Of a DNA stretch of 64,000 nt, positions 7,357 to 10,106 are shown piece by piece (position 1 is the first letter of the stretch; each line of letters opens with the position of its first letter). Below the pieces are notes generated by a model, which saw only the letters and a program-made list of their open reading frames with translations, did not search any database and had not been told where the DNA came from. Both the position numbers and the translations under genes were made by a program. Location of the stretch: assembly GCF_053078305.1 (NCBI RefSeq), contig NZ_CP166879.1; one strand, given 5' to 3'.

Positions 7357-7802
7357 ATCAGTCGCTCACCCTTGCCTTTTTGATTGCCGCCGGAATTGGT
7401 CTGGTAGTCCAGAACACGCTGATGGTTCGCATCACCCAGACCTCCTCTACCATTCTCATCGCCATGTTGCTGAACTCACTGGTGGGGATTGTGCTCTTTG
7501 TTTCTATTTTATGGTTTAAACAAGGTATGGCGGGGTTTGGCGAACTGGTGTCCAGCGTGCGCTGGTGGACACTTATACCTGGCTTGCTGGGATCGTTTTT
7601 TGTCTTCGCCAGTATCAGCGGATATCAGAATGTGGGAGCGGCGACAACTATTGCAGTACTGGTCGCCAGCCAGCTGATTGGCGGTCTGGTTCTGGATATC
7701 TTCCGCAGTCATGGCGTACCACTACGGGCGTTGTTCGGCCCAATTTGTGGCGCAATTTTACTTGTGGTTGGCGCCTGGTTGGTAGCCAGACGCTCATTTT
7801 AA
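7353..7802 (+). CDS. ydcZ: Inner-membrane protein YdcZ (DMT-like, DUF606)
   Basis: 149-aa hydrophobic ORF; start overlaps mnaT stop (ATGA). Confidence 0.85.
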   Translation: MNQSLTLAFLIAAGIGLVVQNTLMVRITQTSSTILIAMLLNSLVGIVLFVSILWFKQGMAGFGELVSSVRWWTLIPGLLGSFFVFASISGYQNVGAATTIAVLVASQLIGGLVLDIFRSHGVPLRALFGPICGAILLVVGAWLVARRSF

Positions 7803-8036
7803 TCACAGGATGGTGCCGCCTTTGGTTAACTGTTCATGGCGCGCTTCCATATCTTCTTTATGCTTGCGACCGTGATGAGCAATAGCGGTGCGCAAACGCT
7901 GCTGCTGGGTGTAGCGATCTTCCCGACTTAACTCCGCGTCATCGCTCAGGGCGATTAATAATTCGTTCATATGGGCAATGACGCTCTCTTCAATCGCGGC
8001 ATCCACACGCGCGATGACTTCATCCAGATGCGACAT
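7803..8036 (-). CDS. ydcY: Small protein YdcY (DUF2526)
   Basis: 77-aa ORF, recognised sequence MSHLDEVIARVDAAIEES. Confidence 0.8.
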   Translation of the reverse strand: MSHLDEVIARVDAAIEESVIAHMNELLIALSDDAELSREDRYTQQQRLRTAIAHHGRKHKEDMEARHEQLTKGGTIL

Positions 8037-8121
8037 ACTTTCTCCTTAGCCACTTGTGAAATTTATCGATTCATCCAAATGATATAAGTCTGCGTGGTGC
8101 CGTCAAGCCAGTGAGTAAGAT

Positions 8122-8295
8122 TTAAAACAGTGAAAACAACAGCGCCACCGGGAAACTCATCGGCCATGTTGCCCCCACCAGAAAGGCGCTTAAGAAACGG
8201 ATGCGTTTCTTATCGTGAGAAAGAAACCAAGTGATAAGAAATGCGATTGCTGCCATAACCGCATAAAAAACAAGCATGTGTTGATAGAGAGACAT
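8122..8295 (-). CDS. ortT: Small membrane toxin-like protein OrtT (YdcX)
   Basis: ORF 8122..8343 trimmed to MSLYQHMLVFYAVMAAIAFLITWFL (57 aa, two TM segments). Confidence 0.8.
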   Translation of the reverse strand: MSLYQHMLVFYAVMAAIAFLITWFLSHDKKRIRFLSAFLVGATWPMSFPVALLFSLF

Positions 8296-8489
8296 GTACG
8301 GGCGTCCAGCCAGATGAATAAAACGCGCGCAAATATGCGTCATTTTTTGACGTACATCAAGTTTTTTAACCGGTTTGAGAAAAAAACATCAAACAGCAAC
8401 TTGCCCTTATCCATCTTCAGAATGAGTATTATTGCGGATTTTCTTAACCCGTACTATACACATAGGGGCAATGATAAAAGGTGGCAAAA

Positions 8490-8585
8490 ATGAATGTTTC
8501 CAGTAGAACTGTAGTACTGATAAATGTCTTTGCTGCTGTTGGTTTGTTTACTCTTATCTCTATGAGATTTGGCTGGTTTATTTGA
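8490..8585 (+). CDS. yncL: Small single-TM protein YncL (31 aa)
   Basis: Below the 60-aa ORF-track cutoff; ATG at 8490 preceded by SD aaaggtgg; translation MNVSSRTVVLINVFAAVGLFTLISMRFGWFI; recognised as YncL. Confidence 0.75.
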   Translation: MNVSSRTVVLINVFAAVGLFTLISMRFGWFI

Positions 8586-8607
8586 TGTAGTGATTTTGCA
8601 CGCAGCA

Positions 8608-8642
8608 CGTACTGTCAGAGAAATCAGTGCTCTGACAGTACG
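8608..8642. repeat. Perfect 13-bp inverted repeat (hairpin) downstream of yncL and patD
   Basis: cgtactgtcagag-aaatcagtg-ctctgacagtacg; no adjacent T-tract on either strand. Confidence 0.6.
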
Positions 8643-8681
8643 CAAGATCATCTCATACTCTTACGATCTGCAATATTATCC

Positions 8682-10106
8682 TTAATGTTTAACCATGACG
8701 TGGCGGACGACGGTGTAATCCTCCAGCCCATAAAGTGACATATCCTTGCCGTAACCAGAAAGTTTCTGCCCACCGTGCGGCATTTCACTTACCAGCATGA
8801 AATGGGTATTGACCCAGGTACAACCATATTGCAGCCGTGCACTGACGCGATGCGCCCTGCCCACATCTTTCGTCCATACCGAAGATGCAAGTCCGTACTG
8901 GCTGTCATTCGCCCAGTTCACCACCTGTTCTTCGTTGTCGAAGAGCGTAACACTCACTACTGGACCAAATACCTCTTTTTGCACGATGGCATCGTCCTGT
9001 AATGCGCCAGCCAGCAGCGTCGGCGCATAGTAATAGCCATTACCCTTGCGCTTTTCACCGCCAGTGATCACTTTGATGTGCCCTGTCGCTTTCGCCTCTT
9101 CTACTGCCTTGCTGACGCGTTCGAGATGCGCCAGCGAGCTTAAAGGTCCAAGCTCCGTAGACTCGTCATCCGGCGCACCAGATTTTAACGTTGCCACCGC
9201 AGCACCCAGTTTTTCCACCAGCGTATCGTAAATGCCTTTTTGCGCGTAGATCCGACAAGCCGCAGTACAATCCTGTCCAGCATTGTAATAGCCAAATGTA
9301 CGTACACCTTCGACCACTGCTTCAATATCCGCATCATCAAAAACAATCACTGGCGCTTTGCCACCAAGTTCCATATGAGTACGCTTAATGGACGGCGCGG
9401 TATGGCTGATGATGTGCTCGCCGGTGGCGATAGAGCCCGTCAGCGACACCATCCGCACTTTAGGATGTCCGGTCAGCGGATCGCCCACGGTTTTGCCTCT
9501 GCCAAACAGTACGTTAATCACGCCTGCCGGGAAGATATCTTTCGCCAGCTCTGCCAACTTCAACGCGGTCAGCGGGGTAATTTCTGATGGTTTAAGCACT
9601 ACGCAGTTCCCTGCCGCCAGCGCCGGAGCCAGTTTCCACGCTGCCATCATCAGCGGATAATTCCACGGTGCGATAGAAGCCACGACCCCCAACGGATCGC
9701 GACGGATCATCGAAGTATGACCTTCAAGATATTCACCTGCCGCCAGACCATTCAGACAGCGCGCCGCACCCGCGAAAAAGCGAAAAACATCGACAATCGC
9801 CGGGATTTCATCATTGAACGCACTATGCAGCGGTTTGCCACAATTACGGGACTCCAGTTCGGCAAAAACCTGACCATTTTCTTCGATAACATCAGCCAGT
9901 TTCAGCAGACATTCCGCACGCACTTTCGGCGTGGTTTGCCCCCATTCGGCAAATGCTGCATCTGCCGCGCGCACAGCAGCATCGACCTGCTCTGCGGATG
10001 CCTCGGCAATCTCCAGTAAAACGTCCCCCGTTGCCGGATTATAGACAGGCTGTTTTTCCCCTTCGCCGCTAACCAGTTCTCCGTTAATCAGTAACTTATG
10101 TTGCAT
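8682..10106 (-). CDS. patD: Gamma-aminobutyraldehyde dehydrogenase (aldehyde dehydrogenase family)
   Basis: 474-aa ORF; ALDH motifs MELGGKAP and catalytic-Cys region GQDCTAACR. Confidence 0.92.

Follow-up and report, generated by a model that had tools for sequence, protein, structure and literature searches.

We found that a perfect 13-bp inverted repeat behind the micro-gene yncL of Escherichia coli probably forms the protective 3′ stem–loop of a short, σS-driven and Rho-terminated yncL mRNA, a reading to which we give a probability of about 0.68. The proposed unit would comprise a σS-type promoter, a 5′ untranslated region (UTR) of about 20 nt, a Shine–Dalgarno (SD) sequence, a 31-codon open reading frame (ORF) and a 60-nt 3′ UTR that ends in the hairpin. 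Because the hairpin has no U-tract, RNA polymerase would most likely pass through the stem into patD in the antisense direction; Rho would load on the untranslated, C-rich RNA behind the stem and terminate transcription within a few hundred nucleotides. The 3′-to-5′ exonucleases PNPase and RNase II would then remove the heterogeneous tails as far as the stem base, leaving a precise and abundant end at position 8645, and the stem would stabilize the short σS-driven mRNA.

All coordinates refer, unless stated otherwise, to the stretch of 64,000 nt that we analysed (the window; Table 1). It derives from E. coli: positions 8100–8900 are 100% identical to strain TUM13936 and are found at an identity of at least 95% in 5,415 of 5,426 complete genomes. 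The RefSeq annotation beneath this segment in a 100% identical strain lists ortT, yncL and patD, the names that the original prediction, made from the sequence alone, had given to these genes. The product of ortT matches the Pfam family PF10753 (Toxin_GhoT_OrtT) with 96.9 bits.

Table 1 Features of the ortT–yncL–patD region in window coordinates
Feature	Position	Strand	Basis or remark
ortT, orphan toxin OrtT, 57 aa	8122..8295	-	RefSeq; divergent neighbour, left boundary of the region
Putative yncL promoter −10 element, CTATACA, σS type	8454..8460	+	Conserved motif
Shine–Dalgarno sequence, AAGGTGG	8478..8484	+	Read from the sequence; 5 nt upstream of the ATG
yncL coding sequence, 31-aa single-transmembrane stress-response membrane protein	8490..8585	+	WP_001303494.1, NF000537
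3′-UTR stem–loop, 13-bp perfect stem, 9-nt loop, no U-tract	8608..8642	+	Structure, covariation
C-rich, G-poor tract past the stem, putative rut	8643..8700	+	Composition: 14 C and 6 G in 58 nt
Steady-state 3′ end of the yncL transcript	8645	+	Term-seq, Adams et al. 2021; RNA ends ...GUACGCAA
Read-through zone antisense to the patD 3′ end; Rho region peak at about 8931	8701..8931	+	Adams et al. 2021, Supplementary file 2
patD, gamma-aminobutyraldehyde dehydrogenase	8682..10106	-	Convergent neighbour of yncL

The 31-codon ORF with a strong SD that had been predicted here is present, with its ATG at 8490, its stop codon at 8583–8585 and the peptide sequence MNVSSRTVVLINVFAAVGLFTLISMRFGWFI. This peptide is identical to WP_001303494.1, which is annotated as yncL, and it scores 72.5 bits (cut-off 35, E = 1.8e-20) against the NCBIfam equivalog NF000537, ‘stress response membrane protein YncL’. 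The single transmembrane segment ascribed to it was likewise borne out: residues 7–23 form a hydrophobic core (peak of 2.42 in a 17-residue Kyte–Doolittle window), and one such segment in a peptide of about 30 aa is expected of a member of this family. A Pfam-A search with the YncL of the window gave 0 matches, despite PF28073 being recorded on YncL orthologues in precomputed annotations. Residue 13 (window 8526–8528) is polymorphic: the window and most E. coli copies from metagenomes have Val, K-12 has Phe, and divergent Escherichia lineages have Leu.

The gene itself is not a discovery, because yncL is a known micro-gene that has been annotated and studied experimentally before. As cited in PMC12542507, Hemm et al. 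(2008/2010) found YncL among the small membrane proteins of E. coli, and the tagged protein was detected and was inducible. Induction occurs in minimal medium, upon heat shock and in stationary phase, and YncL production leads to membrane depolarisation and nucleoid condensation (PMC12542507). In Salmonella, the orthologue lies within a transcript first named as the sRNA STnc1110, which requires σS, and a lacZ translational fusion is also σS-dependent (PMC5437024). This ‘coding sRNA’ and the yncL described here are the same gene, with a 31-aa membrane peptide, a σS promoter and a short monocistronic transcript; the 3′ hairpin is not discussed in either yncL paper (PMC12542507, PMC5437024).

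Upstream of yncL, the −10 motif (A)CTATA(C/A) is kept in 37 of 37 distinct upstream sequences from many lineages, across which the SD is also conserved. On the sole basis of this conserved −10 element, we place the transcription start site at approximately 8467, where the yncL mRNA would begin. A strong RpoS genomic-SELEX peak has been reported in the spacer between yncL and ydcX (ortT) (PMC5493296). The sRNAs RprA and KilS are recorded partners of the yncL mRNA, and both RIL-seq and TRIC-seq report yncL as an RprA target. At the presumed 5′ end of the mRNA (8464–8470), most lineages have an AGGGG run or a close variant of it (AGAGG, AAGGG). RprA has a CCCCU stretch, and the AGGGG run as its pairing site is a lead only. 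In strain EH10-18-47 (NZ_CP063499.1, L003:2888-4050), an IS3 element lies directly upstream of the conserved −10 element, at the equivalent of window position ~8450, and substitutes for the upstream promoter sequence of yncL.

The inverted repeat behind the gene proved to be exactly as predicted, a perfect 13-bp repeat with a 9-nt loop. Its arms, CGTACTGTCAGAG at 8608–8620 and CTCTGACAGTACG at 8630–8642, are complementary at 13 of 13 positions and form 7 G–C pairs; the stem begins 22 nt past the yncL stop codon and lies 39 nt from the patD stop codon. The hairpin is predicted to fold with −20.5 kcal/mol on the plus strand and with −19.7 kcal/mol on the minus strand. RNA folding and 3′-end mapping had both been proposed as checks in the original prediction, and in the fold of the whole predicted mRNA (8467–8645) the hairpin is present in the minimum-free-energy as well as the centroid structure. 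The stable, G+C-containing stem–loop of an intrinsic terminator is therefore there. Its U-tract, taken as at least 5 T in 8 nt directly behind the stem, is missing: the 12 nt past the stem read CAAGATCATCTC on the plus strand and TGCTGCGTGCAA on the minus strand, with a T-tract on neither side, and our terminator scan made no call at 8608–8642. The earlier statement that this is not a canonical intrinsic terminator thus stands.

No other perfect inverted repeat in the 64 kb has arms of 13 bp or more and a loop of 3–20 nt, and this one is the longest perfect hairpin there. In 300 first-order Markov simulations of the 64-kb window, the mean number of such repeats was 0.01 per window, and 1% of the simulated windows had one. 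The palindrome is single-copy, with one locus per genome in 5,411 E. coli genomes; an apparent second place per genome (E = 0.84) turned out to be a self-match of the palindrome to its other strand and was discarded. An Rfam search of 7800–9200 at E ≤ 10 gave 0 matches. We also dropped a LexA box, as a spacing of 19 nt between the CTGT and ACAG motifs does not suit one, and a resemblance to attC or REP elements, as the element is single-copy and the core-site motifs are absent.

A published Term-seq map places an abundant RNA 3′ end directly behind this stem. K-12 has a sequence identical to the window from the end of yncL to patD, and coordinates convert as K-12 = 1525684 − window. Supplementary file 1 of Adams et al. 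2021 (eLife, PMC7815308) lists a 3′ end at 1517039(−) in all three growth conditions, with averages of 75,265 reads in LB at OD 0.4 and 536,300 reads in LB at OD 2.0. The 3′ nucleotide is position 51 of the 61-nt string in those tables, as we verified against the thrL entry, and therefore the RNA ends ...CUCUGACAGUACGCAA, at window 8645. This end lies 3 nt past the stem and 60 nt past the yncL stop codon, and its roughly 7-fold higher read count at OD 2.0 fits a σS gene. The table files it as ‘antisense patD’ although it is on the yncL strand (PMC7815308), apparently because yncL was not used in the classification. On the patD strand, the Adams Term-seq tables for the available conditions list no 3′ end near the hairpin. 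A weak ‘orphan’ Term-seq end on the ortT strand, at K-12 1517357(+) or window 8327 (−), lies some 32 nt before the start codon of ortT and near hairpins at ~8323–8352; it averages 848 reads, is seen in the LB OD 0.4 sheet only and might be a premature end within the ortT leader.

Downstream of the stem, read-through is sensitive to bicyclomycin (BCM), which was applied in the same study. A Rho termination region is reported at 1516753(−) (window ~8931), antisense within patD and about 290 nt beyond the 3′ end, where the reads upstream and downstream are 220 and 9 without BCM and 106 and 72 with BCM (Rho score 16.6, p = 5e-21; PMC7815308); the score is computed over 800-nt windows, so the position is coarse. 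We infer that the read-through RNA begins at the yncL promoter; at that resolution, the BCM-induced RNA might instead arise from a cryptic antisense promoter within patD. Judged by its composition, the C-rich tract directly past the stem is a putative Rho loading (rut) region. Blocks on both sides of the hairpin are conserved in Escherichia, Citrobacter and relatives, a TTGC(A/T)GCGC-like block upstream (8598–8607) and a C-rich block downstream (8643–8660). The latter, (A/C)GATC(T/A)TC(C/T)CAC in Escherichia and Citrobacter, contains GATC and could be the Rho loading site.

We assembled yncL loci from a PatD-anchored scan of species genomes, from E. coli variants, from exact-protein look-ups of divergent YncL representatives found with phmmer and from metagenomes scanned with a degenerate DNA pattern for yncL. 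The 139 copies collected represent 24 different peptide strings, of which one is a 15-aa fragment, and have 52 distinct 3′ flanks. In all sampled lineages, across these 52 flanks, a stable hairpin begins 5–45 nt past the yncL stop codon. Conservation of the palindrome had also been named as a check. Escherichia, a sequence 98.8% identical to E. albertii, Citrobacter and several further lineages have a homologous U-less helix whose core reads G[T/G]CAGAG...CTCTG[A/C]C, with a loop of freely varying sequence and length. The Klebsiella-like lineages have a canonical intrinsic terminator (A-tract, GC stem and T-tract) at the same place, Superficieibacter and the locus L090 carry unrelated U-less hairpins after yncL, and in the loci L119 and L145 a T-run comes a few nucleotides after the homologous stem.

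The helix itself covaries. An alignment of 23 different homologous sequences gives an RNAalifold consensus of 8 core pairs, of which 3 have compensatory changes, and double-sided changes are found in 8 of the 14 pairs of the helix. Paired bases fill 85% of the cells of this 14-pair helix, versus 30–49% when the partner is slid by 1–3 columns, and the observed covariation score was reached by 0 of 500 shuffles. G–U cells (13) and A–C cells (14) are about as frequent as each other in the alignment and are uninformative as to which strand’s RNA is under selection. The hairpin accompanies yncL whether patD is 92–104 nt away, the compact arrangement of E. coli and several divergent lineages, or 0.5–3.8 kb are inserted between the two genes. 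On these comparisons, we favour the view that the palindrome is a selected nucleic-acid structure tied to yncL and not an operator or the relic of a mobile element.

The spacer between yncL and patD is an insertion hot spot (window 8675–8690). In about 22% of complete E. coli genomes, the hairpin and patD are separated by an AT-rich segment of ~1.3 kb with a gene for a CatB-related O-acetyltransferase. Repeats of the form CTTAAT(A/G)TTTA bound this island (L004:400-1745), which supplies patD with a terminator-like hairpin of its own; in one strain, an IS1 lies within its O-acetyltransferase gene. The AT-rich insert that E. albertii has in the spacer is a different one, and Citrobacter and Klebsiella-like lineages have inserts of 0.5–3.8 kb. 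Genomes that have the island and genomes that lack it both carry the yncL hairpin, which invariably lies on the yncL side; the island boundary follows about 45 nt further on.

The stem–loop closely resembles a class of RNA ends that is already known. Dar & Sorek 2018 described Rho-dependent transcripts whose precise steady-state ends lie directly after stable stem–loops; these have neither U-rich tails nor upstream A-tracts, show a mild enrichment of C over G downstream and shield the RNA from PNPase and RNase II (PMC6061677). The yncL stem–loop likewise sits directly upstream of a precise steady-state 3′ end, lacks a U-rich tail and an A-tract, is followed by more C than G (14 versus 6 in 8643–8700) and has BCM-sensitive read-through downstream. 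It differs from that class in its unusually perfect stem, with 13 of 13 Watson–Crick pairs, and in its location between convergent stop codons, because of which it could act on both transcripts; the dependence on exonucleases and the rut are putative here. Our best reading is that the yncL hairpin is an ordinary further example of these U-less protective stem–loops, with its 3′ end probably made by exonuclease trimming.

The most serious competitor, which we nevertheless consider unlikely, takes the hairpin for a non-canonical, possibly bidirectional terminator and 8645 for the true termination point, with polymerase stopping at the U-less stem aided by NusA/NusG or by head-on polymerases from patD. 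A sharp 3′ end only 3 nt from the stem would suit such a terminator, as would a perfect palindrome of near-equal stability on the two strands that is located between convergent stop codons, with spacers of 92–104 nt, in several divergent lineages, and whose position is occupied by true intrinsic terminators in related lineages. Bidirectional terminators between convergent genes are reportedly pervasive in SEnd-seq data. Set against this are the absent U-tract and the silent terminator scan, the BCM sensitivity of the downstream read-through and the overlap of the patD and yncL transcripts listed by ExcludonFinder, which implies read-through. Moreover, the sharpness of the end may also be explained by exonuclease trimming, which yields sharp ends beside U-less stems (PMC6061677). 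Even where a U-tract is lacking, a long stable hairpin alone might still bring about some pausing or termination.

We also compared the hairpin with the intrinsic terminators of the Klebsiella-like lineages (TAAAAAAGCAGCC...GGCTGCTTTTTTA, of the bidirectional type). The E. coli hairpin shares with them its position after yncL, a similar stem length and energy and the capping of the mRNA 3′ end by a hairpin. Unlike them, it has no U-tract after and no A-tract before the stem on either strand, and so the defining release element is missing.

Endonucleolytic processing by RNase III or RNase E, with the hairpin as a stable decay fragment or a processing signal, is a distinctly improbable source of the 3′ end. 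RNase III would here cut either an extended helix or sense–antisense duplexes of yncL and patD; the transcripts of the two genes do overlap, and a tiling-array study reports altered yncL RNA levels in RNase E/III mutants (PMC3082872). The E. coli fold does predict a longer, interrupted helix, in which 8590–8599 pairs with 8642–8651 in addition to the inner stem. We rejected this outer helix as a conserved feature: the RNAalifold consensus retains the inner stem only, and the outer pairing is broken even in the close Escherichia relatives L156 and L163, which carry GCAAAATT where E. coli has GTGATTTT. Typical RNase III substrates are also longer than a 13-bp stem, and we know of no matching cut in the 5′ strand.

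The original prediction had offered a protein operator or an RNA processing or stability element, and it is the RNA element that survives, given a 3′ end 3 nt past the stem and a covarying helix. That the palindrome is a DNA operator, bound by a dimeric protein that regulates yncL, patD or ortT, is very improbable, for all that the perfect dyad symmetry and the 22-bp centre-to-centre distance of the arms (about two helical turns) would suit one. The palindrome lies downstream of both flanking ORFs, away from promoters; its arm bases change in compensatory pairs (8 of 14) with the half-site sequence unconserved; the core half-sites are spaced by 9, 11 or 12 nt depending on the lineage; unrelated hairpins or a plain terminator take its place in Superficieibacter, L090 and the Klebsiella-like lineages; and a very abundant RNA end maps to it. 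The chance that it is left over from a mobile element or a repeated palindromic one (REP/BIME-like, a MITE end or attC-like) tied to the adjoining island is negligible: the neighbouring spacer is indeed a hot spot, with the O-acetyltransferase island in ~22% of E. coli genomes, but the palindrome is single-copy in E. coli genomes without an Rfam match, keeps to the yncL side whether or not the island is there and is conserved together with yncL across genera.

The protective 3′ stem–loop may also have a role for patD. ExcludonFinder (PMC12288877) lists patD–yncL among 165 convergent overlaps in E. coli. The pair resembles convergent-gene excludons in its overlapping 3′ UTRs; the listed overlap fits read-through, and any regulatory consequence would be hypothetical. 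A bolder proposal, that in the compact arrangement with its spacer of 92–104 nt the single symmetric U-less hairpin is a shared 3′-end cap for yncL and patD and that the two genes form an excludon-like switch, strikes us as quite doubtful. If it were true, σS-induced yncL transcription would run antisense into patD until Rho stops it and would damp putrescine catabolism (patD) upon induction of yncL, and the repeated exchange of U-less hairpins and bidirectional terminators at yncL would reflect selection on the read-through that is permitted.

The practical value of the yncL hairpin is modest, and it leaves current understanding unchallenged. One of the stronger Term-seq 3′ ends of E. coli (536,300 average reads at OD 2.0), filed as ‘antisense patD’, is hereby assigned to yncL, and the hairpin, read as a protective stem–loop, would be a clear case of the U-less type with evolutionary validation. 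Because yncL ends in a U-less hairpin or in an intrinsic terminator depending on the lineage, the Enterobacteriaceae would offer in this gene a convenient natural pair for two routes to a stable mRNA 3′ end.
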